Virus record (IMG/VR): IMGVR_UViG_3300023055_000005
Source: a virus
Lineage: Duplodnaviria; Caudoviricetes
Length of the DNA stretch: 64,000 bases
Reading direction: 5' to 3' (one strand)
The position numbers and the translations under genes are program-made. Under the pieces are notes generated by a model. It did not search any database. It was not told the origin of the DNA and saw only the letters and a list, made by a program, of their open reading frames with translations. This document shows, in pieces, positions 8,534 through 63,373 of this stretch (position 1 is its first letter; every line of letters begins with the position of its first letter).

Positions 8534-8932
8534 ATGAACTTGGAAGAATACCTGTTCAACCGTCTGGGAGAGGAGGCAGCCGAGGTTGTACAAGGCGCCA
8601 CGAAGATCCTCTCCTTCGGGTCAGAGCATCGTGTCCCGTCCAACCGCATGGCCGCCAACGATTACCTGGTCGCTGAAATCAACGATATCCTGGGCGTTGC
8701 TGACTTCCTGAAGGAATGCGGCATCGAGCTGTTTGGTATCGGCAAGCCGCAGGCCCGCGAGGCAAAGATCCAGAAGATCATCACTTACATGCAGGTCTCC
8801 ATCGATGCTGGTCGCCTGACCCTGAGCGATGAAGAACTGACCATGATCAACAACCGCAACGACGGCAAGCCTCTGCACCATCGCATCGGCGATACGGTGG
8901 CGGCTACCTTCGAGCAAAAGGAATCGGCATGA
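8534..8932 (+). CDS. MazG-like NTP pyrophosphohydrolase
   Basis: LGEEAAEVVQGATK and EINDIL form the EExxE...ExxD metal-binding signature of MazG-type all-alpha NTP-PPases. Confidence 0.7.
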   Translation: MNLEEYLFNRLGEEAAEVVQGATKILSFGSEHRVPSNRMAANDYLVAEINDILGVADFLKECGIELFGIGKPQAREAKIQKIITYMQVSIDAGRLTLSDEELTMINNRNDGKPLHHRIGDTVAATFEQKESA

Positions 8933-9129
8933 CCACGCTCTTTGTCTGCGACAAGTGCAATTCGGTTGACACCACGATCGAAGCCTACCCGTCCCGCAAC
9001 TTCGTCCTGAGCAACATGCAGTGCACCAAGTGCCAGACCGGGCAGTGGCACCGTGCATTCCCGCAGTTGCAGTACAAGCCTGAGAAGGACCACGTCATGA
9101 ACCGTGCCAGTGGGATCGGCTTGGGATGA
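8929..9129 (+). CDS. Small Zn-finger protein
   Basis: CDKC...CTKC..GQWH. ATGA overlap with the upstream stop. Confidence 0.7.
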   Translation: MTTLFVCDKCNSVDTTIEAYPSRNFVLSNMQCTKCQTGQWHRAFPQLQYKPEKDHVMNRASGIGLG

Positions 9130-9512
9130 CCAAGTTCATTGTCGATTACGATTCCAAGACCAACACCCCTGAATCGGTGAAGGACTTCGAACGACTCGCC
9201 AATCGAGGTAACCCCGGACTGTACCGACTGGACTACATGTGGGTACTGAAGTTCGCAGTGAAGATGCTGGGCGAGGTGGCACTGACTCGTGATCGTGACG
9301 ATGTGGCCATGGTGATCCAGGAGCTGTACAGCAACTTACACTTGCTGGTGGATTACCCGGATATGGCCGAACCGATGGCAGAAGACATTGTCCGCGAGGT
9401 CAATCGACTGGCCACCTTCTTACCCGACGATCTGGTACTCAGTGATGATCGTCCGAGACGGTGTGAGATCATCGACCATCGACATGGCGCACTGTTGATT
9501 GAGATCCTGTAA
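9126..9512 (+). CDS. Hypothetical protein
   Basis: 128-aa ORF with ATGA overlap, followed by a hairpin + TTTATGCCC. Confidence 0.7.
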   Translation: MTKFIVDYDSKTNTPESVKDFERLANRGNPGLYRLDYMWVLKFAVKMLGEVALTRDRDDVAMVIQELYSNLHLLVDYPDMAEPMAEDIVREVNRLATFLPDDLVLSDDRPRRCEIIDHRHGALLIEIL

Positions 9513-9637
9513 CTGGCCGGGGTTCGCCCCGGCCTTTATGCCCCAACGCTCTGTAAAGCTCTCTAAGGAGCGTCCAGCGTAAATAAGTACTCCCATAGCC
9601 TTTTCTATGTAGAAGAGCCCTAGAGGCCATTCTAACG

Positions 9638-9658
9638 AGTTTCAGACCTACACTATCT
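9638..9658 (+). promoter_or_regulatory. Early-type promoter (identical 21-mer also at 21409-21429)
   Basis: AGTTTCAGACCTACACTATCT. Core TACACTAT aligns with TATATTAC and lies just upstream of an operon start. Confidence 0.65.
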
Positions 9659-9686
9659 CAGTGTAGTGTACCAGTGGAGTTTCACA

Positions 9687-10067
9687 ATGCGTCGGGCAAT
9701 ACTCATCTACGACATCACAGCCGAACATCGGGATGTCCGCAGAATAGTGCGCGACGCCTTACATCGTCGCGAGGAGCTAGTCGTCATCGACAGCTTCAGA
9801 GAGGGAAAGTTCGCAGCTGCCGTGAGAGAGTGGTTCGTCTACTTTCTTCTGGAGTACGCCTACCTCGGCGTGCCACCCACCTTCGGCTTCCGTCCTGATC
9901 CTCGTCTCGAAGATTTCTTCGAGCGCAAAACTTCGCCTCAGTTGATCACTCTTGCTCGAAAGCTCCGGATTCCATGGGAGCTCTCTGAAGAGACTCCCGT
10001 CATTGATATCCGGGAGCGCGATCTAGTGCTGACCTATAACAACGTAGATACATCGAGATGGACGTGA
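9687..10067 (+). CDS. Tandem-array protein 1 (hypothetical)
   Basis: GGAG SD. N-terminal AILIYD strand and C-terminal VIDIRERDLVL hairpin. Confidence 0.7.
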   Translation: MRRAILIYDITAEHRDVRRIVRDALHRREELVVIDSFREGKFAAAVREWFVYFLLEYAYLGVPPTFGFRPDPRLEDFFERKTSPQLITLARKLRIPWELSEETPVIDIRERDLVLTYNNVDTSRWT

Positions 10068-10068
10068 C

Positions 10069-10542
10069 ATGAGACACACCGCGCGGATTTACGACCTCGG
10101 CAATCTTGCCCGCAGGATGGTTCGAAACATCGAGGACTTCCTGGAGCTGTACGGCGACAAGAAGACCCCCCGTCCGAACATCACCGAATGTGGTCAGATG
10201 TTGGTCACCATCCTCACCAATGAAATCGACCGGCGCGCCAAGTGGGCCAGTCCGATCGGCCACGAAGAGCTGTTCGCGCAGCTGCTGCCGTGGACCTTGA
10301 ACATCGAGAAGGGACCGGTTTACGAAGACTTCTACACCCAGGTGATCGACCGTGCTGTCGTGGCGATCAACCGCTGGCTGGAAGCCTTCATGGAACGGGA
10401 TACATGGATGATCTGGGAGGTTGAGAAAATCACCCCCCTGACGATCTCCCTCGTACCCAAGCAGGACTATCGAATCGAAGAGTGGACCCGCTTGAAAGAG
10501 AATGGCTTCCTGGACAAGTTCCGGGACGGGCGCCACAACTGA
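10069..10542 (+). CDS. Tandem-array protein 2 (conserved hypothetical)
   Basis: ARIYD N-terminal strand, WMIWEV...DYRIEEW C-terminus. Confidence 0.75.
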   Translation: MRHTARIYDLGNLARRMVRNIEDFLELYGDKKTPRPNITECGQMLVTILTNEIDRRAKWASPIGHEELFAQLLPWTLNIEKGPVYEDFYTQVIDRAVVAINRWLEAFMERDTWMIWEVEKITPLTISLVPKQDYRIEEWTRLKENGFLDKFRDGRHN

Positions 10543-28129: not shown

Positions 28130-28897
28130 ATGGCTTACGGAAACAACAACCAGAGCAACCAGCCGAAGGTGGCGCCGAACATCCTGAACGACTGGGATCT
28201 TCGCATGATCGGCGACCCGCAGCAGGGTGCCAAGAAGCCGCCGGCTCTGAACTGGCGTCTGAGCAACACCAAGTCCGGCACCAAGGCCGTCATGCAGGTC
28301 CGCACCAATGTACCCGGTGCCAAGGACGACGGCCTGATCTCGGCGCAGTTCAACACCCGTGACTTCTTCGGCGGTTTCCTGGGCATGTTCAAGCGCCTGG
28401 AGAAGCTGGAAGCCGGCAAGCAGCTGGTGATGGGCAACAACCGCTTCTTCAACGGCAAGCAGAACACCGTCTCCAAGACCATCCTGGGCAAGGAAGCGGA
28501 CGGCGCCTGCTACATCGGCCTGGTGGCCCGTGATCAGGCCAACGTGAAGTTCTACTTCGGCCCGAGCGAGAACCACTTCCTGACCTACGCCGACGGCACT
28601 CCGCTGTCGAAGGAAGAAGTCAGCCTGATGTACGCCGGCCAGTACGCCGAAATGCTGCTGCACTTCCTGGGCAACCTGCTGACCTCGGCCTACGTTCCGC
28701 CGCCGCCGCGTGATGGTGGCTTCCAGGGCGGTGGCGGTGGCGGTGGTGGTTACGGCGGTGGCAACCGCGGTGGCCAGGGTGGCGGTGGTGGTGGCGGCTA
28801 CGGTGGTGGCGGTGGGGCTGGCTTCCAGTCCAACGGCGGCTCCGGTGGTGGCTTCGACGCAGGCTTCGGTGGCGACGACCTGCCGGAAAACTTCTAA
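28130..28897 (+). CDS. chmC: ChmC-like nucleus-associated RNA-binding protein with Gly-rich tail
   Basis: Directly upstream of the gp68-like and PicA genes. About 190-aa beta-rich core, PPPP linker, GGG/RGG disordered tail ending FGGDDLPENF. Strong codon bias. Confidence 0.75.
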   Translation: MAYGNNNQSNQPKVAPNILNDWDLRMIGDPQQGAKKPPALNWRLSNTKSGTKAVMQVRTNVPGAKDDGLISAQFNTRDFFGGFLGMFKRLEKLEAGKQLVMGNNRFFNGKQNTVSKTILGKEADGACYIGLVARDQANVKFYFGPSENHFLTYADGTPLSKEEVSLMYAGQYAEMLLHFLGNLLTSAYVPPPPRDGGFQGGGGGGGGYGGGNRGGQGGGGGGGYGGGGGAGFQSNGGSGGGFDAGFGGDDLPENF

Positions 28898-29036: not shown

Positions 29037-30578
29037 ATGAAAATTGAAATCTCCAGAGAGTCGGGAAGTGGTGGCGTGATCGAGGTTACTCTCAGTCACG
29101 GCAACTACGAGCCGACCACCTGGAACACGAGCATGCACGACCGGACCAAGATCAAGGACCGACCGGCACTGTTCAAACATCTCAACGCGTACTGGGCACA
29201 TTTGCCCGAAGAAAAGCAGGAACAGATCTGGCACATCTACGAGACCATGCGGATGACCTTCGCCAAGGTCTTCGACGACAGCCTGCTGCCCCTGCTGCTG
29301 AAACAGATCCGCGAGCTGTTCGACGTCATGACTCCGGAAGATCTCTCCAAGTGGATGAGTCTGCGAGGCAACGCTGGTATCCCCAGTGCCATCTCCGACG
29401 CCTACACCGAGGAAGGTCGCTATGGGAGCATCAAGCGCTTCCATGACCGGACCTGCCTGCGTCCTGACTACCGCAACTTCATCTACACCGCTTTGGCATT
29501 GCGTTCGCTGATGCCGGTGTTCGGTGAATACATCTCCCGTACCGAGAAGATCAATGGCGCGGTCTTCAAGGAGATGATGGCACTGCCGCTGATCAGCGGA
29601 AGCCAGTTGTGGGACATGCCGGGCGTGCAGTGGTTGATCAAGTACGTCGATGCAACGCTGGAGCAGGAGAAGCCTTCTGACTCGGCAATCATCGGCGGTA
29701 TCGGTCCATCGGAACGACCGGACTGGCTGCTGGCCAAGATCTTGATCCGTCGCCTCACCACCGAAGAGTTCCCGGTGAATGGCGATGACAACAACATCAT
29801 GATCAACATCTACCACGTCGTACGCAACTCGTTGAAGAACGAGCACAAGAGCTTGATGGGTCCGATCACCAGCAAGTTCCGCAACGACAGCGACATGGGC
29901 GATGATCAAGAGCGCATCTCCCGGTACGAGCAGTACAAGGAACGCACTAATCTCTCCCAAGGTGACATGGCGCCCAATCGCATCTGGATCGAAGACTACG
30001 TCGCAGCCGCTCAGCGACTGGACCCGACGATCGACCAGGCGATGGTGGAGACCTGCGTCAGCTACGCACGCAAGCAGGATATCACGGTGATCTCCGAGCA
30101 CACCATGGTCCTGATCAAGTACGTGCTGGATCCGGCCGTATCCTCCAAGAGCATTGATCCGCTCTTGCTGCCCACTACTCTGGTAGCGGCAGGCGTTACC
30201 CAAGCACTGCTGTGGCATTGGGGCTTCTTCGATCTGGCCGGCATCGTTACCGCCCGTCGTTTCGAGGTTCCCGAAGATGCAATGGCTTCTGGTCCTGAGC
30301 AACGTAACCGAGTCCCCAAGGACTTGGCCGAGGACTTGACTCGACTGTATCCCCACTATGTAACCCCGAAGGGTGGGCGACCGCAGACCGAGCGAAAGAA
30401 GAACATGGCATACATCGCCATCGATCTCATGGCAAACCTGATGTTCGGCGCAGAATGGACTCTGACCTGTCCGCCGGCGTTGGCCAAACAGACCAACCGT
30501 ATCACCAATGACAGGATGGTCGCACCAGCGGACCTGAGAGAACAGCTGGCAAGACTCATCATCGAACGTATCGCGTAA
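29037..30578 (+). CDS. Non-virion RNAP promoter-specificity subunit (phiKZ gp68-like)
   Basis: 513 aa. LFKHLNAYW, TCLRPDY..FI..ALALR...PVFGEYI and S.GD motifs. Position between chmC and picA. Confidence 0.8.
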   Translation: MKIEISRESGSGGVIEVTLSHGNYEPTTWNTSMHDRTKIKDRPALFKHLNAYWAHLPEEKQEQIWHIYETMRMTFAKVFDDSLLPLLLKQIRELFDVMTPEDLSKWMSLRGNAGIPSAISDAYTEEGRYGSIKRFHDRTCLRPDYRNFIYTALALRSLMPVFGEYISRTEKINGAVFKEMMALPLISGSQLWDMPGVQWLIKYVDATLEQEKPSDSAIIGGIGPSERPDWLLAKILIRRLTTEEFPVNGDDNNIMINIYHVVRNSLKNEHKSLMGPITSKFRNDSDMGDDQERISRYEQYKERTNLSQGDMAPNRIWIEDYVAAAQRLDPTIDQAMVETCVSYARKQDITVISEHTMVLIKYVLDPAVSSKSIDPLLLPTTLVAAGVTQALLWHWGFFDLAGIVTARRFEVPEDAMASGPEQRNRVPKDLAEDLTRLYPHYVTPKGGRPQTERKKNMAYIAIDLMANLMFGAEWTLTCPPALAKQTNRITNDRMVAPADLREQLARLIIERIA

Positions 30579-30596: not shown

Positions 30597-32177
30597 ATGG
30601 CACGCAAAACTCGCATCATCCAACTTCTGTTCCGGGAGACTGGAACCTACCAGACGATGCAGGCACGTCCCTACGTCGCCGAGATTGACGGACACGACCT
30701 GATCAGTTTCGCTGAACGCACCGATGACGGTTCGAACTTCAGCCGCGAAGCATTGGCCGGACTGGCTGGTAGCATCCTCTCACCGCAGGCCCACAGCGCT
30801 GGCGAAGTTGACATCGCCGGTGGTTACGGCAACAAGCGCTACCGCTTCATCATGGAAGTCAGCCATGAAGATCGCTTCGGCGGTGGACACCGTCAGGTGT
30901 TCTCGGGTTACACCGACTACATGGGTGCCGACTCCCGCACCCGCCGTGGCGATCAGGTTTCCATCGACCGGAACATGAAGCTGTACCTCAACAGCGTCAT
31001 GACCATCCGCGACGTGGTGGACCACAGCAGCAATCGTCGCGACACCATGTCCACGGTGTTCGAGAACTCCCACATCCTGTCGGGCCTTTACAAGCCGAGC
31101 CTGCGACAGGACGAAGGTTCCATGGACGTGCGCATGCGGCCGGAAGACGTCTTCGCTTCGATGACGTTCAGTTCGTTCAAGTCCTCCCGCCGTTCCACCA
31201 ACGACGTGGTGCACGACACGCGAACCTCCTTCGCCGACGGCATCTGCAAGTCGCGCCGTTCCAACTCGACCGCTGCCAACTACCTGAGTGACCTGTTGAC
31301 CACCTACAGTCGCACGACGGACAACATGCAGTACGAGAACACCGATCGTTACAAGAAGCTGGAATCGGCTCGCGGCGCCATCGCCGAGAACTACATCACG
31401 GATGACCTGTTCCTGGGTCCGCTGTACCGTGAGACCAGCCTGAAGACCGGCAACTGGATCACCTTCCAGGAACTGATCGACATCGATCCGGACGTGGAGC
31501 GCGATGAAGTCACCCAGGTTCACCACAGCAAGGTGATCCATCGTGACAGCACCCGCCTGCGTGATCGCAACGACGACCAGGATGACTGGGCCGACGTCAA
31601 CAACGAGACCGTGGCAGCAACCATGCTGTCGCACGCGGTCCCGGCGATCATGATGGACCTCACGCTGACCCAGGTGGCGTTCATTGCTACCAACCGTACC
31701 CGTGACAACCGTCCCGAAGTGCACCCGACCGGCGGCCGCATGTTCAGCAAGCATGTGGACAAGGTTCCCGAGAAGGTCATGAACGTCTTCCTGAACCGCC
31801 TGGAAGATGAAGTGCTGCGCGACATCTCCAACCGTGGTCGTATCGACTACGACATGGAAGTGCGCGTGAACGTGTTCGGCGACTCGATCATCAAGATCTC
31901 CCTGCTGGGCGGTCGACATCACGAGTTCGTTGTACCGTCCTTCAGCGATGCCGGCTTCGTGCCGGTGCTGGCCCGTAGCAGCAGTGCTCTGGCCAGCCTC
32001 GCCCAGGAACTGACGGAGCTTACCTCCACCGTCGATGCCAATGCAGCGGCACGTAACAACTTCAGGTCGAACTTCATGGGCACCCGTGATGACGACACCA
32101 TCGACGATCGACCCACCAATAGCGGCCGTAGCCGCTGGACCGAGAATGACCGCAATGACGCTGATTCCGTTCTATAG
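30597..32177 (+). CDS. picA: PicA/Imp1 nuclear protein-import factor (phiKZ gp69-like)
   Basis: N-terminal I.QLLF.ETGTYQ.M..RPY, GGY...RYRF.MEV, MRPEDVF and KSRRSN.....YLS. Located immediately after the gp68-like gene. Confidence 0.82.
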   Translation: MARKTRIIQLLFRETGTYQTMQARPYVAEIDGHDLISFAERTDDGSNFSREALAGLAGSILSPQAHSAGEVDIAGGYGNKRYRFIMEVSHEDRFGGGHRQVFSGYTDYMGADSRTRRGDQVSIDRNMKLYLNSVMTIRDVVDHSSNRRDTMSTVFENSHILSGLYKPSLRQDEGSMDVRMRPEDVFASMTFSSFKSSRRSTNDVVHDTRTSFADGICKSRRSNSTAANYLSDLLTTYSRTTDNMQYENTDRYKKLESARGAIAENYITDDLFLGPLYRETSLKTGNWITFQELIDIDPDVERDEVTQVHHSKVIHRDSTRLRDRNDDQDDWADVNNETVAATMLSHAVPAIMMDLTLTQVAFIATNRTRDNRPEVHPTGGRMFSKHVDKVPEKVMNVFLNRLEDEVLRDISNRGRIDYDMEVRVNVFGDSIIKISLLGGRHHEFVVPSFSDAGFVPVLARSSSALASLAQELTELTSTVDANAAARNNFRSNFMGTRDDDTIDDRPTNSGRSRWTENDRNDADSVL

Positions 32178-33573
32178 TTCCTTGCTCGATTCGCTCAACG
32201 TTGTACAGAGCGATGATGGCAAGCTTTCCCTGCTCGTCGGCAACGAAGAGCGCCCGCTGCTGATCAGCGGCAAACGTGCGGCCATGCCGATCGCTGAAGT
32301 GCTGCGTGGCGGCATCGATGATGGCGTCGTGGTATTCCATCCGCTGTCGGAGAAGATCTTCCGCGGCGAATCGGAAGTCCTGAAGAAGCTGAAGGAGCTG
32401 GTGACCCTGCGACTGGGCACCGCTCTGACGCTGACGATGGCGCACATCCTGGACATCGCCGCAGAACCCGAGCAGCACAAGAAGCTGCCGCCGCAGGCCA
32501 TCAAGCTGCTGCGCAACCTGCCCGACGCTGACGACAAGTTGGTCAAGACCTTCGAGAAGATCACCGAGACCTTCGCCGAGCACAAGGAGCACCGGCCGTT
32601 CAAGCTGTTCCTGCGCAAGAGCGGCGTGATCGGTGATACCACCTACAGCCGTGTGGCCAAGGTGGACTTCCCGTACATCGACCAGATCGATCTGGAAAAG
32701 ACCGACCTGTTCGGCTTGAAGGTCCGCAAGCGTGATCCGAAGGCGCTGTTCAACCTGATGGATATCGTGGTGCCTGGCTGCGCGGTGCCCAACACCTACA
32801 GCTACGGCAGCAACGCGCTGATCGCTCCCAACTTCGATGCCCTGATGCGTGCCTACCACAAGGTGGCCAAGCAGATCAACGAAGTCAGCGAGCTGTTCCG
32901 CGACAAGAACGAGGAAGTCAATGAGCTGTACATCGACCTGAGCTGGTTCGATGGCATGGACGACCTCGACAACCTTGCCGTGCAGGTGCCCTCGATGTCG
33001 GGCAACGAAGGCAACGTGGCCATCGAAGAACGTGCACCGGGTGATGACAAGGAACGCGAGAAGCCGGTCGAACCGGAACGCGTGCCGGAAACCCGCCGCA
33101 ACGAAGAACGCGACGATCGTGATGATCGACGTGATCCGCTGCGTGACAACCGTGGTGACCGCGAGTTCTCCGAATCGCGCGATCGCTACCGTCGTGAACG
33201 TGATGAAAGCCGTGGCCGTGATCGTGACCGTCGTGATGACGAACGCGAACCGGCCCGTAGCAGTCTCACCGACCGCTACACCGGCAAGGCGGATAGCGCC
33301 CCTTTCCGCGACTCGTCGTCGTCCAGGGATCGCGACGATTCGAGGTACGGAAGCCGGCGCGATGGCTCCTCCGAGCGCGCTGGATATCATCAGAGGCCTC
33401 GGAATGGCTGGCGTTCTGATGATCGCGACGATCGTGGTCGTGATCGTGACTACCACTACCGCGGTGAGCGCGATCGCGATGATCGTGATGACCGTCGTAG
33501 CAGTCGGCGTGACCGTGATGACCGTTACGACCGCGATGACCGCGGCCGTGGACGTCGTGACCGTCGCTACTGA
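32155..33573 (+). CDS. Conserved gp70-like protein with a ~170-aa Arg/Asp-rich tail
   Basis: MTLIPFYSSLLDSL start overlapping the picA stop, FHPLSE...GES.VLKKL, YSYGS....P.F.ALM and NEGN. Low-complexity RD tail. Confidence 0.8.
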   Translation: MTLIPFYSSLLDSLNVVQSDDGKLSLLVGNEERPLLISGKRAAMPIAEVLRGGIDDGVVVFHPLSEKIFRGESEVLKKLKELVTLRLGTALTLTMAHILDIAAEPEQHKKLPPQAIKLLRNLPDADDKLVKTFEKITETFAEHKEHRPFKLFLRKSGVIGDTTYSRVAKVDFPYIDQIDLEKTDLFGLKVRKRDPKALFNLMDIVVPGCAVPNTYSYGSNALIAPNFDALMRAYHKVAKQINEVSELFRDKNEEVNELYIDLSWFDGMDDLDNLAVQVPSMSGNEGNVAIEERAPGDDKEREKPVEPERVPETRRNEERDDRDDRRDPLRDNRGDREFSESRDRYRRERDESRGRDRDRRDDEREPARSSLTDRYTGKADSAPFRDSSSSRDRDDSRYGSRRDGSSERAGYHQRPRNGWRSDDRDDRGRDRDYHYRGERDRDDRDDRRSSRRDRDDRYDRDDRGRGRRDRRY

Positions 33574-33626
33574 GTAACGGCATAGGCGGGGGGATAAACC
33601 CCCCCGCTTATTTTTTTGCCTTCGAC

Positions 33627-33986
33627 TCACTGGCCAGAGGTCATCAGAGTGCGCTTCTCGGTGATGTAGCGAGACCGCAGCTTCTCGATAACTTGAGAAG
33701 ACGGAACCCGCAGAACCGTTTCGGTCCCAAGGAAGTCTTCATTGCTGCGCATGTTGTTGACGCGCATGACAATGTGGTGCATGAAGCGTGGCACATCCAT
33801 GGCGGTGAGCAAGCCTGCCAGATCGCCTTCATTCTTCCACCCGTGACGTTCAGGCACAGGCATCAACGTCGTCGAGGCGTCCCGACGCAACAGCCCCAGG
33901 TGAGACTCAATCATCCGGATGAAGTCAGGGTCGTAGTAGATATCGAGCCCGTCGTCTCGTTTCGTTCTGCGTAGACTCGATTGCAT
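33627..33986 (-). CDS. Conserved small protein (LysM/baseplate gp53-like pattern)
   Basis: F...IESHL.LLR, EGDL.GLL....VP..MHHIVMRVN. Opposite strand between the gp70-like gene and RNAP beta, as in related phages. Confidence 0.65.
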   Translation of the reverse strand: MQSSLRRTKRDDGLDIYYDPDFIRMIESHLGLLRRDASTTLMPVPERHGWKNEGDLAGLLTAMDVPRFMHHIVMRVNNMRSNEDFLGTETVLRVPSSQVIEKLRSRYITEKRTLMTSGQ

Positions 33987-34078: not shown

Positions 34079-36190
34079 ATGTCCGAGCATTCGCACGACT
34101 TTCACAACCCCAAAGGTCGTGAACAGTTGTCCCCGCAATTGCTGGGGTTGAGTTCGCTCAACAGCTTTCCCGCAGAAACATCATCCTCACGTGCGCAGAT
34201 GTGGACATCGCACATGGGGCAGACCCAGGTAGTAAAGGGAGCATGTCCGCCTGTAATTGCCACTGGCACGGAGTGGGATTACGGTCAGTACACCTTCAAC
34301 ATCAAGATGCCGTGCAATGCGATCATTCGCAAAGTCATTCCCAAATACAACACGCGCACGGTCGGTTACGAGTCCATCCGCGAGAACCCATCCACGCTGG
34401 TGATCTTCGAAGATGCCGACAGCCGCGCTGGCCGCATCGACTGCATCGAGATCCCCCGCCACTGCATCCACCATCAGCACTTCGGGTTCATCTATGTTCC
34501 CACGGCCGCTGAGAAGATGCTCTACGAAGGTGCAGCCATCGAGGAAGGCACGATCCTCGCAGACTCGCCCAACGTAGATGAGAACGGCGACTACAACTTC
34601 GGCATTGAGGCGCAGGTAGCCCTGATGTCGTTGCCGGGCGTCATCGAGGACGGCATCATCGTCAGCGAAGACTTCCTGGAGTCGATCACCTCAGTTGGCA
34701 TCGAGACCCGTACCTTCAGCTTCGGCAAGAAGCGTTTCCCGCTGAACATGTACGGCCGTGACTCCGGTGACTACCGTCCGTTCCCCGAGATCGGTCAGGC
34801 GGTTGCTGAAGATGGCATCGTGTGCGCACTGCGTGAGTACGATCCGATCCTTGCCCCGATCCACATGTCTCCCCAGGCACTGCGGACTCCGGATGCTCCC
34901 CACGATGACGTGATCTACGCACCGCCCGGTGCTATCGTGCGTGACATCCAGGTGTGGCATGACAACCGTCGTTCCTCGGCACCGCCGACTCCGGTGGGTA
35001 TGGAAGTACAGCCGGCACGCTATCACTCGGCGGCATCGCGCTATTACAAGGCGATCATCGACACCGTGGAAGGCGTGGAACGTGAGCGCAAGCGCGCAGG
35101 TCGTCCGTTCCAGTTGGGCGAGCGGCTGGAGGAAGTGATGGTCAAGGCCATCGCTGATGATCCCAGCAACGGCGGCGATCAGAAGATCACCTACACCTAC
35201 CGCAACGAACCGCTGGATGACTGGCGTGTCGAGATCACTCTGGAATATCCGGTGATCCCCGACATCGGTTCCAAGGCGACCGGGCAGGATGGTGACAAGG
35301 GCGTCTTCGTGGAAGTGCGCAAGCGTGAAGAAATGCCGGTGGACATGCACGGCAATCGCGCTGACATCGTCATGGATGCTGAGTCTGGCATCAAGCGCAT
35401 GAACATGGGCCGTCTGTACCGTCAGTACTTCGCATCGTCCTGCCTGTACCACACCGGCGTGGTGCGTGACATGTACGACAAGAAGGTGCCGATCGAAGAG
35501 ATCTGGGACTTCATGCTGGGCTACTACGCCATCTGCTCCCCGATCAAGCACCAGCTCCTGACCAGCGCAAGCTACCAGGGCACGCCCGAAGAGCACATCC
35601 GTTCCATCGTCAAGGATCAGATCCGTCTGACCATCCCGTGTGACAACCCGGCACGTTCCATCGACATGGTGCGTGAGCTGGAGAAAGCCTACCCGACGCC
35701 GTATGGTCCGGTGAGCTTCATCGGCAAGCGGGGCAACAAGATCACCACCAAGAACAAGGTGCGGATCGGCGGGCTGTATATCCTGGTGCTGGAAAAGACG
35801 GGTAACGACTGGGCAGCAGTATCGTCCGGCAAGACCAGCCACTTCGGGTTCCCGGCCAAGCGTACGCAGCGTGACCGCTACAGTGAACCGGGTCGTACCG
35901 GCTCCACTCGCGTGGGCGGTGAGGCGGAAGTCCGTCTGGGTGAAGCAATTGCCCAAGGTACGTTCGCTGAACTGATCGAGCAGTCCAACAGCCCGGTAAC
36001 GCACGGCAACATCGTGTTCAACATTCTGACCCACCCAACGCCGAGCAACATGGATACGGCAGTGGATCGGAACATTGCACCGCGCGGCCAAGGGCGCAAC
36101 CTGCGATTCCCGAAGCACATCTTCGGATGCTTCGGCTTCAGGATGATTCAGGTTGATCCCGAAACGGGTGAAACCCTCCAGCGTCTGTGA
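34079..36190 (+). CDS. rpoB: Non-virion RNA polymerase beta C-terminal subunit (gp71-73-like), uninterrupted
   Basis: SSRAQMWTSHMGQ, PGVIEDG, GSKATGQDGDKG, RMNMGRLY, LEKTG and RVGGEAE motifs. Confidence 0.92.
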   Translation: MSEHSHDFHNPKGREQLSPQLLGLSSLNSFPAETSSSRAQMWTSHMGQTQVVKGACPPVIATGTEWDYGQYTFNIKMPCNAIIRKVIPKYNTRTVGYESIRENPSTLVIFEDADSRAGRIDCIEIPRHCIHHQHFGFIYVPTAAEKMLYEGAAIEEGTILADSPNVDENGDYNFGIEAQVALMSLPGVIEDGIIVSEDFLESITSVGIETRTFSFGKKRFPLNMYGRDSGDYRPFPEIGQAVAEDGIVCALREYDPILAPIHMSPQALRTPDAPHDDVIYAPPGAIVRDIQVWHDNRRSSAPPTPVGMEVQPARYHSAASRYYKAIIDTVEGVERERKRAGRPFQLGERLEEVMVKAIADDPSNGGDQKITYTYRNEPLDDWRVEITLEYPVIPDIGSKATGQDGDKGVFVEVRKREEMPVDMHGNRADIVMDAESGIKRMNMGRLYRQYFASSCLYHTGVVRDMYDKKVPIEEIWDFMLGYYAICSPIKHQLLTSASYQGTPEEHIRSIVKDQIRLTIPCDNPARSIDMVRELEKAYPTPYGPVSFIGKRGNKITTKNKVRIGGLYILVLEKTGNDWAAVSSGKTSHFGFPAKRTQRDRYSEPGRTGSTRVGGEAEVRLGEAIAQGTFAELIEQSNSPVTHGNIVFNILTHPTPSNMDTAVDRNIAPRGQGRNLRFPKHIFGCFGFRMIQVDPETGETLQRL

Positions 36191-60897: not shown

Positions 60898-61928
60898 GAC
60901 AGCAGCCTCCTCTTGGCATCTTCGTAATCGACCTTGGTAACCCACCATTCAAGACGGCTGGATCGGGGGTCGATTCGAGGGTAGCCTCGGTAGTTGAAAA
61001 AGGTCAGTTCGGCTTTGGTCAGGCGCTGCATCTTTTCTTCGCGAGTACCATCAAACATGTCGCTATTGAAGAAGCAGACCGTGGAGTTGAACTCCACCAA
61101 CAGGATCGGATCGTAGGGCTCGTAACCAAGGCACTGGAAACGAACACTGATCTCCTTACTGTCCTGACTCATTGCCTGATCGGCATTGAAGTTGAACACC
61201 GCGCCCAACGGATTTGCCGTGGGGAATGCGCCGGCACAGGCCGTGATACGCTGGACGTACTGGCGGGTCGGATCAAGCACGAGGCGATAGATTCGCGTCA
61301 TGTAGTCGATCTCGTTTTCCAGCACCATCAGCGGATACGGCAGCATCGTGCCCTGCGTCACTTCTGCGATGTACTTCATCCACACGTAATACAGCAATGT
61401 TATAGGGTCGCCTGTCACATTGCGGTAAGTTGCGTTAAGCGGGAAGGCTGAGAAGTCACGCGAGATGCCATCGGCCATCGTGTAAACTTCTCGGTGTGCA
61501 CCCGGCTTCGAGGTGAACGTATCGAGCTCTTGATCAGGCCACCCCGTCAAACTGAGGAGGTGGTTGGTCAATGGCGTTATGAACGCTTGCTTCGGATCGA
61601 CCAGCGGAGTGTTTACTGCCTTTCGAGCGCCGGGGTCTTCAGGATAGTGACCCCACGGATCGAGCAAGCAGCGAATAGCCCGCTGGTAGCTGTATTCCTC
61701 CGGTGTCAACAGAGGAGTCAGCTGGCGACACGACGCTACATTGTCGTACGCAAGATTCAACAAAGGCCTGGTGAAAAAGATCAGACCCTGATTGTCGGTA
61801 TTCAGGGGAATCGGATTACCCAAGCCGCGATGGTTGATGCCGAACATCGCATCACTTGATGCCCGGCTGAAGGAACCAAGGCCTGATCCCTGAGCGATCA
61901 GGTTGATATCCTCTTGATATGTACTCAT
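60894..61928 (-). CDS. Virion structural protein (gp88-like)
   Basis: G..FFTRP.LNL.YDN, N.L.SL.GWPD, RN..GDPI, IDY.TRIYRL.LD and FP motifs. Confidence 0.75.
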   Translation of the reverse strand: MSTYQEDINLIAQGSGLGSFSRASSDAMFGINHRGLGNPIPLNTDNQGLIFFTRPLLNLAYDNVASCRQLTPLLTPEEYSYQRAIRCLLDPWGHYPEDPGARKAVNTPLVDPKQAFITPLTNHLLSLTGWPDQELDTFTSKPGAHREVYTMADGISRDFSAFPLNATYRNVTGDPITLLYYVWMKYIAEVTQGTMLPYPLMVLENEIDYMTRIYRLVLDPTRQYVQRITACAGAFPTANPLGAVFNFNADQAMSQDSKEISVRFQCLGYEPYDPILLVEFNSTVCFFNSDMFDGTREEKMQRLTKAELTFFNYRGYPRIDPRSSRLEWWVTKVDYEDAKRRLLS

Positions 61929-61963
61929 TTCTGTTTCAACCTCCGATAAAAGGGCTTTCCAAA

Positions 61964-63373
61964 ATGATTCTCAAATCGGTGCTGGCGAATACCGCGCTGA
62001 AGTTCGTGACCCAGTCGCTGCCATTCTTGATGGCAAAGAACAACAAGTCACTGATCGACGTCTCTGCTCCCACTCGCGTGGAGCCGGTCGTCCTGGTCGA
62101 TTCGCGTCTGCAGTCTCAGCCCTACATGGGCGATGTCATGCAGTCGCTCACCTCGCTCTTCGCAGCGTACTACATGATGGCGGTAAGCCTGCGTGTCAAC
62201 GTCGGACGTGTCGACGTGGTGCGCCTGTTGGAACCCCTGAATCCCAAGCGTGCTGGTCTTGGCACCAGCGCTGACATGCAGCGCGCCTCGGCGTACCTGA
62301 TGTCGTCCATGGAATCCTACCGCTTCGGCCTGCCCTCGCCGAACCTGCCGGTTCCGGGTCTGGAAAGCTACGGCCTGGAAGCCGACGACTACCAGAGCCA
62401 GCGCATGAAGCTGGACGAACGTCGCCTGGCCCTGGACACCCGTCGCTTCAACGCCGAACAGCAGCGTCAGCGTGAACAGCGCGCCGGCGAGCAGGACAAG
62501 GAATTCCAGAACCGTCTGCGTGATCAGAGTCGTGCTGACGCTGAAGCCCGCAAGCAGGAGCTGGAAGAATCCCGCTTCGCCGACCAGCGCACGCGCGCTG
62601 ATCGACGTGAGAAGCAGGACGCGCTTCGCCAGGCGGCGGAGGATGAACGTCGTGCAGCCGAAGAAGAGCAGCGTGATTTCGAACGCTCTCAGCCCGGTGC
62701 GGAATTCTCCAACGTTGATGTGTTGAAGGACACCGCCAACCTGAGCGTCGGCAAGATGCTGGAAGTGTCGGTCACCGACAACGGTCAGACCGCTCGCTTC
62801 CCCATCCAGCTGCGTCTGATCGCCTCGCTGATCGCGCCCCGGAACCTGGTTCATATATTGGGCGACCTGTCCAAGAACATGACCATCAAAGAGCGCTACC
62901 ACATGTGGCGTTCGGGTCAGCTGGAGTTCGTCAAGGACATCGTCTTCTGCACCGACCTGATCGACAACCACCGTCGTACGCTGGCGCAGGATGGCACCCG
63001 GACCTACCGGAACATCCTGAAGACCCGCAACAACAACGGTCTGGCTGCGATCTTCCGTGGTAGCCCGTCGCTGGCCACCGCTTCGAACATGTGCGTGATG
63101 TCCGGCGACACCGTCAAGGAACTGGAGCGTGAGGCACGTGGCCGTCTGAGTGACAGCCGCTTCCGCCAGCGCATCTTCGAAGGTTCCTACCTGATGGTGC
63201 TGGTCGTGGTCGACGAGAAGTGGGAGAGCGTCACCTTCTACCATCGCGGCATCGACCTGCCGACGGAACTGAACCTGCGCGACATCAAGGGCGCTTCCAA
63301 GGGTGGCAGCAGCACTGCTGACATCATGGAAATCTTCAAGGCCCTCAACAGCCAGAACGCCCCCTCCTTCTGA
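61964..63373 (+). CDS. Inner head protein (gp89-like) with coiled-coil insertion
   Basis: SLID....TRVEP...VD, SMES/GLES/GLEA cleavage sites, NL.VGK.LEV, ER.H.WR.G.L.F.KD and ASN..V.S motifs. Confidence 0.78.
   Translation: MILKSVLANTALKFVTQSLPFLMAKNNKSLIDVSAPTRVEPVVLVDSRLQSQPYMGDVMQSLTSLFAAYYMMAVSLRVNVGRVDVVRLLEPLNPKRAGLGTSADMQRASAYLMSSMESYRFGLPSPNLPVPGLESYGLEADDYQSQRMKLDERRLALDTRRFNAEQQRQREQRAGEQDKEFQNRLRDQSRADAEARKQELEESRFADQRTRADRREKQDALRQAAEDERRAAEEEQRDFERSQPGAEFSNVDVLKDTANLSVGKMLEVSVTDNGQTARFPIQLRLIASLIAPRNLVHILGDLSKNMTIKERYHMWRSGQLEFVKDIVFCTDLIDNHRRTLAQDGTRTYRNILKTRNNNGLAAIFRGSPSLATASNMCVMSGDTVKELEREARGRLSDSRFRQRIFEGSYLMVLVVVDEKWESVTFYHRGIDLPTELNLRDIKGASKGGSSTADIMEIFKALNSQNAPSF

Follow-up and report, generated by a model that had tools for sequence, protein, structure and literature searches.

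The C-terminal tail of a single phage protein bears on the question of how proteins besides chimallin reach the nuclear shell of jumbo phages and become arranged there. The gene concerned lies at 32155..33573 (+ strand) of the window, that is, of the whole stretch of 64,000 nucleotides from IMG/VR virus record IMGVR_UViG_3300023055_000005 that was analysed here (G+C content 57%), and its source is an Xoo-sp14-like jumbo phage of Xanthomonas (85% DNA identity to MT939492 over 6 kb). The gene encodes an ortholog of PhiKZ gp70, PhiPA3 gp64, and Goslar gp173, a core protein of the nucleus-forming Chimalliviridae, in which a folded domain is followed by a disordered tail dominated by arginine and aspartate. 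The analysis described here indicates that the tail shared by this family can be rebuilt in wholly different chemistry while under selection, and that the flexible segments with which chimallin (ChmA) forms its lattice, as well as an internal region of a further core protein, gp124, carry chemistry that matches the tail, which makes gp124 a candidate third member of a shell network.

On the basis of homology of its N-terminal domain, the protein belongs to the gp70/gp64/gp173 family (phrog_3520, E 1.4e-82; BLASTP to PhiKZ gp70, 7e-34), and it shares 90% identity with Xoo-sp14 gp225; a Pfam search returned no match for the protein or its neighbours, apart from the RNA polymerase beta match given below. 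The start codon ATG 32155 is conserved among relatives. An alternative ATG at 32146, where the relative L003 has GTG, gives a protein of 475 aa, and the residue numbering used here counts from this position. The tail occupies 33052..33570 (+), corresponding to residues 303-475. The sequence-only reading of this locus had announced an Arg/Asp mixed-charge tail of ~170 aa on the protein neighbouring PicA, and translation in the + frame, composition, and the mixed-charge-domain rule described below all bear this out, at a length of 173 aa. A 518-aa open reading frame (ORF) on the opposite strand (32074-33630) was considered and rejected as a shadow frame of the GC-rich repeat, since the patterns of synonymous and nonsynonymous change fit the + frame.

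The tail is composed of R 32%, D 22%, S 10%, E 9%, G ~6-7%, and Y 5%, with a charged fraction of 0.64, a net charge per residue of +0.02, and arginine in place of lysine (55 R, 2 K); the residues I, L, V, M, F, W, and C together account for 7 of the 173 positions. Its opposite charges are finely interleaved, as the charge-patterning parameter kappa is 0.041, compared with 0.122 +/- 0.031 in shuffled sequences (0 of 1000 as low), and opposite-charge neighbours are enriched (z = +4.2). The mean hydropathy of 0.195 lies below the disorder boundary of 0.42, and AlphaFold2 assigned the tail a predicted local distance difference test score (pLDDT) of 35-45 and no secondary structure, residues 1-290 being confidently folded. 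The protein terminates in RRDRRY. The rule for mixed-charge domains of Greig et al. (bioRxiv 10.1101/771592) asks for a charged fraction of at least 0.7 and a positive to negative ratio of 1 +/- 0.3 within a 60-aa window; 27 such windows in the tail pass, with a maximum charged fraction of 0.75, and the ORF carrying the tail is the sole one in the 64-kb window that does so. By these sequence criteria the tail is an arginine-enriched mixed-charge domain with predicted disorder.

Other classes of low-complexity sequence describe the tail less well. The summed fraction of Ser and Arg peaks at 0.47 in any 60-aa window of the tail, below the 0.6 that defines an RS (Arg/Ser) domain. There are no FG motifs in the tail and no RGG boxes, the latter being approached by six RG dipeptides and a single terminal RGRGRR. 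Aromatic residues (Tyr/Phe/Trp) make up ~6% of the tail, and neither the regularity of their spacing (coefficient of variation of the gaps 0.57, versus 0.84 at random; p ~0.08) nor their adjacency to arginine in the tail (p ~0.15) reached significance. Elsewhere in the window, residues ~200-259 of a 484-aa ORF at 61919-63373 (+), of which Xoo-sp14 has a counterpart at 8880-10292, are rich in R, E, Q, A, and D and resemble a charged single helix or coiled coil, not an RD domain.

The distribution of such tails was assessed by an exhaustive HMMER search with the N-terminal domain, which yielded 1688 representative proteins; 236 phage records matched the gp70/gp64/gp173 family. Tails were surveyed in the best 150 of the 1688 representatives, and all of these consist of a domain of ~290 aa followed by a tail of 105-292 aa with a net charge per residue between -0.05 and +0.06. 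Absence of the tail from most relatives, for which the sequence-only reading had allowed, is therefore not what was found, as a tail is present in 150 of the 150 relatives sampled. What varies is its chemistry. The commonest flavour combines P, Q, A, and G with Y, W, F, or M, the tail of PhiKZ gp70 being rich in Q, M, A, N, and P; the aromatic fraction is mostly 0.05-0.12, and most orthologs have tails with less than 15% charged residues. Strongly charged tails are a minority, and among 156 proteins scanned (155 family members plus the ChmA of this phage) the mixed-charge-domain rule was passed only by the clade to which the present protein belongs. Four other lineages have tails rich in R, D, E, and Y, with recurring DRY-type motifs and a terminal GRGR, and the Arg/Asp version reappears in several lineages known from metagenomes. 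Among cultured phages, Ralstonia phage RSF1 has an Arg/Asp tail of 238 aa (R 32%, D 17%, E 15%) and Erwinia phage PhiEaH1 one of 152 aa (R 30%, D 20%, G 15%). In a tree of 155 sequences, well-supported branches force no fewer than four changes of the charged state. In smaller trees the three cultured Arg/Asp lineages stand apart and require three changes on the best trees, of which strongly supported branches force at most one. Judged from these sequences, the family-wide tail comes in several flavours that recur, and the Arg/Asp tail is one of them.

Among close relatives, the Arg/Asp tail is retained at ~90% identity in Xoo-sp14 and in two IMG/VR metagenomic contigs, and the insertions and deletions that distinguish these three relatives are exclusively in frame and fall at RDD, RD, and RG units. 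The ratio of nonsynonymous to synonymous divergence (dN/dS), determined according to Nei-Gojobori for the window gene versus each of the three relatives (dS 0.32-0.47), was 0.075-0.135 for the tail and 0.16-0.20 for the folded domain. The tail is therefore under purifying selection at the level of individual residues that is at least as strong as that on the folded domain. The tail-coding DNA also contains short repeats of 6 and 9 nt, and the tail therefore evolves by slippage as well.

The chemistry of the tail recurs in chimallin. The chimallin of this phage (17194..19173, +; E 1e-18 to chimallins of solved structure) is R/D-rich at its N-terminus (aa ~14-50) and in two loops (~274-293 and ~314-334), and R/G/D-rich at its C-terminus. 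The second of these loops corresponds in the alignment to residues 272-291 of PhiPA3 chimallin, the 'large flexible loop'. In PhiPA3 this loop makes loop-loop contacts between tetramers at one lattice interface (the Loop interface), and its removal is one of the deletions for which impaired shell integration or self-assembly has been reported. In a panel of 12 phages, the chimallin loop has a charged fraction of 0.33-0.42 in the three lineages with Arg/Asp tails and of 0.03-0.18 in the nine others. The link that the sequence-only reading had drawn between the tail and the RD loops of ChmA is strengthened by these data, as disordered segments of chimallin share the flavour of the tail in all three cultured Arg/Asp lineages. 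In RSF1 a DRY-type motif is common to the chimallin C-terminus and the gp70 tail. Neutral flavours also look paired between gp70 tail and chimallin, with Q/M in both proteins of Simmy50 and G/Q/W in both proteins of FLC9.

Genome-wide scans for segments of this kind were performed in Xoo-sp14 (as a stand-in for the window phage), RSF1, and PhiEaH1. In all three genomes the longest Arg-rich mixed-charge segments are the gp70 tail and a segment in the ortholog of PhiKZ gp124 / 201phi2-1 gp204, with shorter ones at the disordered segments of chimallin. The gp124 protein has ~700 aa (phrog_15010/36323) and is encoded beside gp123, a subunit of the non-virion RNA polymerase (nvRNAP). Its orthologs, which lie outside the window, are found in Xoo-sp14 at MT939492 91903-94119 (L057:11903-14119:+), in RSF1 at L035:16546-18627:-, and in PhiEaH1 at L051:852-3014:-. 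They share an internal disordered region at ~150-280 that opens with a near-identical GRGRDRDDRD in all three Arg/Asp phages, and the corresponding region of PhiKZ gp124 is rich in G, P, Q, and M, resembling the PhiKZ gp70 tail. The proposition that all disordered regions of this phage are of the RD type was rejected by the inventory of the three genomes, in which the remaining regions have other flavours. Apart from these, sizeable Arg-rich low-complexity segments occur in the Xoo-sp14 genome only in a 2428-aa protein (MT939492 149178-156464, -), which has several disordered stretches, one of them R/G/A/D-rich (aa 1272-1336) and another G/D-rich. In PhiPA3 (HQ630627 125935-128041, L072) the gp124 ortholog is split over two frames of 267 and 519 aa, and the record gives it as gene 140 together with gene 141 on the opposite strand; a frameshift, an intron, or an annotation error in the low-complexity region is the likely cause.

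Co-variation of these flavours was quantified with composition vectors centred on the panel mean, comparing matched phages with 20000 permuted pairings and treating the phages as independent. The gp70 tail co-varies with the disordered segments of ChmA (n=12, matched r 0.56, 1/20000 as high; permuted 0.02 +/- 0.14) and with the disordered region of gp124 (n=8, r 0.69, 20/20000), and the latter two co-vary with one another (n=8, r 0.51, 90/20000). The tail of ChmC, encoded at 28130..28897 (+), served as a within-genome control and shows no such relation to the gp70 tail (n=9, r 0.07, 5727/20000). Controls with folded regions gave r 0.20 for the gp70 tail versus the folded core of ChmA (n=12, 433/20000), r 0.13 for the gp70 tail versus its own N-terminal domain (n=12, 456/20000), and r 0.24 for the disordered segments versus the folded core of ChmA (n=12, 52/20000). 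As far as the literature search reached, the matched flavours of ChmA, gp70, and gp124 have not been described.

The ChmC tail had been invoked by the sequence-only reading as an RGG tail allied to that of the gp70-like protein, a link that the data do not sustain: in this phage it abounds in Gly and Tyr, contains one RGG, and has an acidic D-D-L-P-x-x-F tip, and across the phages examined it is G/N/Q-rich with an acidic tip and does not follow the gp70 flavour. Its tip deserves separate mention. The C-terminal tip of bacterial single-stranded DNA-binding protein (SSB) is DDDIPF. Among the panel phages with a recovered ChmC tail, nine of ten have an acidic-hydrophobic end (DDLPENF, DEDMPSF, DDEIPNF, SDDDIPM, SEDLPF, SDDIPW, DSDIPF), which looks like that of SSB and is placed after a linker rich in Gly on a nucleic-acid-binding fold of the Whirly type; this end may be a partner-docking tip. 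A DDDIPF-like end is absent from the gp70-like tail; the ChmC of the same phage ends in DDLPENF.

Published work places orthologs of the protein at or in the phage nucleus, in keeping with the connection to the nuclear shell that had been drawn from the sequence. PhiPA3 gp64 is an early and abundant protein and one of six observed at the nuclear shell; it was proximity-labelled with ChmA or RecA as bait, and it came down with ChmB. Goslar gp173 (Goslar_00173) appears as 'Taileboi' in a 2026 preprint, in which a deletion construct comprising an N-terminal piece, said there to have been localised to the nucleus in earlier work, provides the tag for nuclear targeting. A limited literature search found no paper on the gp70 tail or its variation, and the function of gp124 only in the mentions cited here.

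Taken together, the sequence data suggest that the tail may be a multivalent, composition-matched tether to the chimallin lattice, a proposal to which we give an even chance. Many weak, low-affinity Arg-Asp and Arg-aromatic contacts would be made with those segments of chimallin and gp124 that share the flavour, among them the chimallin loop responsible for inter-tetramer contacts. These contacts would keep the folded domain attached to the shell lattice, perhaps in a gel-like layer. In other lineages, tails of the P/Q/G/M-aromatic type would do the same job, with the partners changing flavour together. A bolder extension, which we put forward tentatively and consider on balance doubtful, is that the flavour of disordered segments constitutes a recognition code for the protein layer of the nuclear shell; this proposal requires a match among the gp70 tail, the internal region of gp124, and the flexible loop and the termini of chimallin, all of which would have switched together more than once between the P/Q/G-aromatic and the Arg/Asp state.

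Several observations weigh against the tether. A kappa of 0.04 denotes a well-mixed polyampholyte, and polymer theory predicts that such a chain is expanded and soluble, not sticky. The r values of 0.13-0.24 in the folded-region controls represent a background that arises from overall amino-acid usage, and when the Arg/Asp phages are excluded the relation between gp70 tail and ChmA falls to r 0.25 (n=9, 655/20000), which does not exceed that background, so that the Arg/Asp lineages carry most of the case, together with a few neutral ones. Composition co-variation is in any event indirect evidence for an interaction among gp70, ChmA, and gp124. The chimallin of PhiEaH1 is R/D-rich in the loop only and not at the N-terminus. 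Moreover, in approximately unbiased (AU) tests a single Arg/Asp clade had p 0.14 with the gp70 domain and p 0.02 with the ChmA core, such that a single origin of the Arg/Asp state in the cultured phages is marginally rejected by the latter and not by the former, and independence of the three cultured lineages (Xoo-sp14-like, RSF1, PhiEaH1) is likely, not proven. Finally, PhiKZ gp70 has been described as nuclear, not shell-bound, and the 56 hits in the available part of the antisense-screen report include PhiKZ 067, 068, and 069 but not 070; 75 genes were tested and the inclusion of 070 is not stated there. PhiKZ gp70 may be dispensable in the laboratory.

The tail can also be read as a passive spacer, i.e., an entropic bristle, flexible linker, or solubility tail of which the exact chemistry is irrelevant, with the likeness to ChmA and gp124 arising from lineage-specific mutational or compositional pressure on low-complexity DNA. 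A spacer would readily account for a family in which flavour is hugely variable while tail length and neutrality are kept, for the well-mixed charge pattern (kappa 0.041), for the 6- and 9-nt repeats and the indels at RDD and RG units that point to replication slippage, for a composition signal that rises above zero even versus folded regions, and for the missing PhiKZ 070 in the available hit list. It is harder to reconcile with residue-level purifying selection as strong in the tail as in the folded domain, and with charge alternation far beyond that of shuffled sequences. Pressure acting on low-complexity DNA would likewise leave unexplained that the RD flavour is limited to three proteins, being absent from ChmC and from other disordered regions of the same genomes, and that in three lineages the switch took place in the same set of proteins. 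A passive spacer is therefore rather unlikely in our estimate. A further possibility is that the Arg-rich tail binds phage transcripts or DNA and condenses with ChmC at the shell for export or gating of mRNA. The 32% Arg and the terminal RGRGRR, the position of the gene within the nvRNAP block, the published entry of eukaryotic arginine-rich mixed-charge domains into speckles with effects on mRNA export, the published RNA condensates of ChmC, and the strong disturbance of PhiKZ transcription upon knock-down of the co-varying gp124 would all suit this role. Nevertheless, the net charge is near 0 with D or E beside nearly every R, RGG boxes are absent from the tail, and the ChmC tail neither shares nor follows its flavour; in addition, most orthologs have tails with less than 15% charge, and therefore the conserved function of the tail cannot lie in nucleic-acid binding or in RD chemistry. 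An RNA- or DNA-handling condensate thus appears improbable.

Import deserves consideration because of the gene arrangement, as PicA might read the tail and thereby deliver the protein to the nucleus, whether to its interior or to its surface. The picA/imp1 ortholog (PhiKZ gp69) lies at 30597..32177 (+; phrog_3141, E 6.3e-87; BLASTP to PhiKZ gp69, 3e-51), and the neighbourhood of PicA and a gp70-like protein that the sequence-only reading had named is substantiated by these matches. The overlap that it had noted was read directly, the picA stop codon TAG (32175-32177) falling within the start of the gp70-like gene with an overlap of 23 nt from ATG 32155 or 32 nt from ATG 32146. Similar overlaps occur in PhiPA3, 201phi2-1, and RTH11, and are absent in PhiKZ, Goslar, and RSF1. 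The RD-rich tail ascribed to PicA itself turned out to be modest, the last ~30 residues being D/R-rich; this end of PicA, like the overlaps, would suit an import role. The coupling of the two proteins, however, amounts to gene arrangement only, since PhiKZ gp70 and Imp1/PicA did not co-purify in either direction; moreover, the nuclear-targeting tag derived from Goslar gp173 is its N-terminal piece, and the known import determinants are reported to be surface patches on folded cargo. A role of the tail as a PicA-read import signal is thus very improbable.

If the flavour code holds, these phages offer a natural, repeated experiment in the co-evolution of a condensate or low-complexity 'grammar' within a viral organelle, and gp124 would be an unrecognised partner in the shell network. 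If the match reflects compositional drift and nothing more, what is left is a low-complexity tail that is unusual yet of an ordinary kind.

The remainder of the locus follows the organisation of related phages. The block runs from ChmC through the gp68-like subunit (sigma factor) of the nvRNAP (29037..30578, +; phrog_3209, E 3e-100), PicA, and the gp70-like gene to a small conserved gene on the minus strand (33627..33986, -; phrog_3455, E 5.4e-23) and the beta (34079..36190, +; phrog_3295, E 1.3e-201; Pfam RNA_pol_Rpb2_6) and beta' subunits of the nvRNAP, an order that matches PhiKZ 067-074. The position of the gp70-like gene downstream of picA and upstream of nvRNAP beta is repeated in 13 other phages, and a gene of equal size occupies the counterpart position of the minus-strand gene in most of the phages examined, among them Goslar, 201phi2-1, RSF1, and SPN3US. 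The RTH11 record labels this small phrog_3455 gene 'baseplate wedge protein', a label that looks doubtful.

The folded N-terminal domain (~292 aa, alpha/beta; 32155..33030, +) was modelled by AlphaFold2 with pLDDT 93 and a predicted template modelling score (pTM) of 0.91. A Foldseek search of this model against the PDB gave no match below E 0.49, and the top VIA-align hit (Z 6.2) was a de novo helical design, at background level; as modelled, the domain has no recognisable known fold. Part of it (residues ~71-256) aligned with the alpha-beta-beta-beta-alpha folds of double-stranded RNA-binding domains (dsRBD) and ribosome-hibernation factors (HPF-like) at Z 3.5-4.5, which is likewise background level.

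With respect to known systems, the protein shares with the gp70/gp64/gp173 family its folded domain, its position in the order ChmC-gp68-PicA-gp70-RNAP, and its layout of a domain followed by a disordered tail, and it differs in having an Arg/Asp mixed-charge tail instead of a Q/M/P/A/G-rich one and in the picA overlap that PhiKZ and Goslar lack. ChmC (PhiPA3 gp61 / PhiKZ gp67) is an RNA binder with a Whirly fold, the disordered C-terminal tail of which drives condensation and shell localisation. It resembles gp70 in belonging to the same gene block and in combining a folded domain with a disordered tail, and it provides a precedent for shell-targeting tails; its fold is unrelated, however, and its tail flavour (G/N-rich, acidic tip) is constant whereas that of gp70 switches. 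The common P/Q/G/aromatic tails of the family resemble, by composition only, the prion-like domains of the FUS type and the FG nucleoporins, from which the present tail differs by its charged spacers and its lack of FG repeats, although it keeps ~6% aromatic residues.

The closest likeness in chemistry is to the domains of speckle proteins and SPA-5 studied by Greig et al. (bioRxiv 10.1101/771592), which have the same use of R instead of K, the same alternation of RD and DR, and the same predicted disorder. Pure RD repeats were found there to condense in a length- and arginine-dependent manner, and the present tail, known from sequence alone, is longer than the ~30-40 RD units needed for condensation; unlike pure RD repeats it contains 10% Ser, ~6-7% Gly, and regularly placed Tyr/Phe/Trp. 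In contrast to the eukaryotic mixed-charge domains, it is encoded by a phage and attached to an unrelated folded domain without an RNA recognition motif (RRM), and the likeness is certainly convergent. In fungi, SPA-5 plugs septal pores, which are cell-to-cell channels, with a hydrogel made by its RD domain (Greig et al., bioRxiv 10.1101/771592), and such a plug offers an attractive analogy for the layer that the tail may help to form on the phage nuclear shell.

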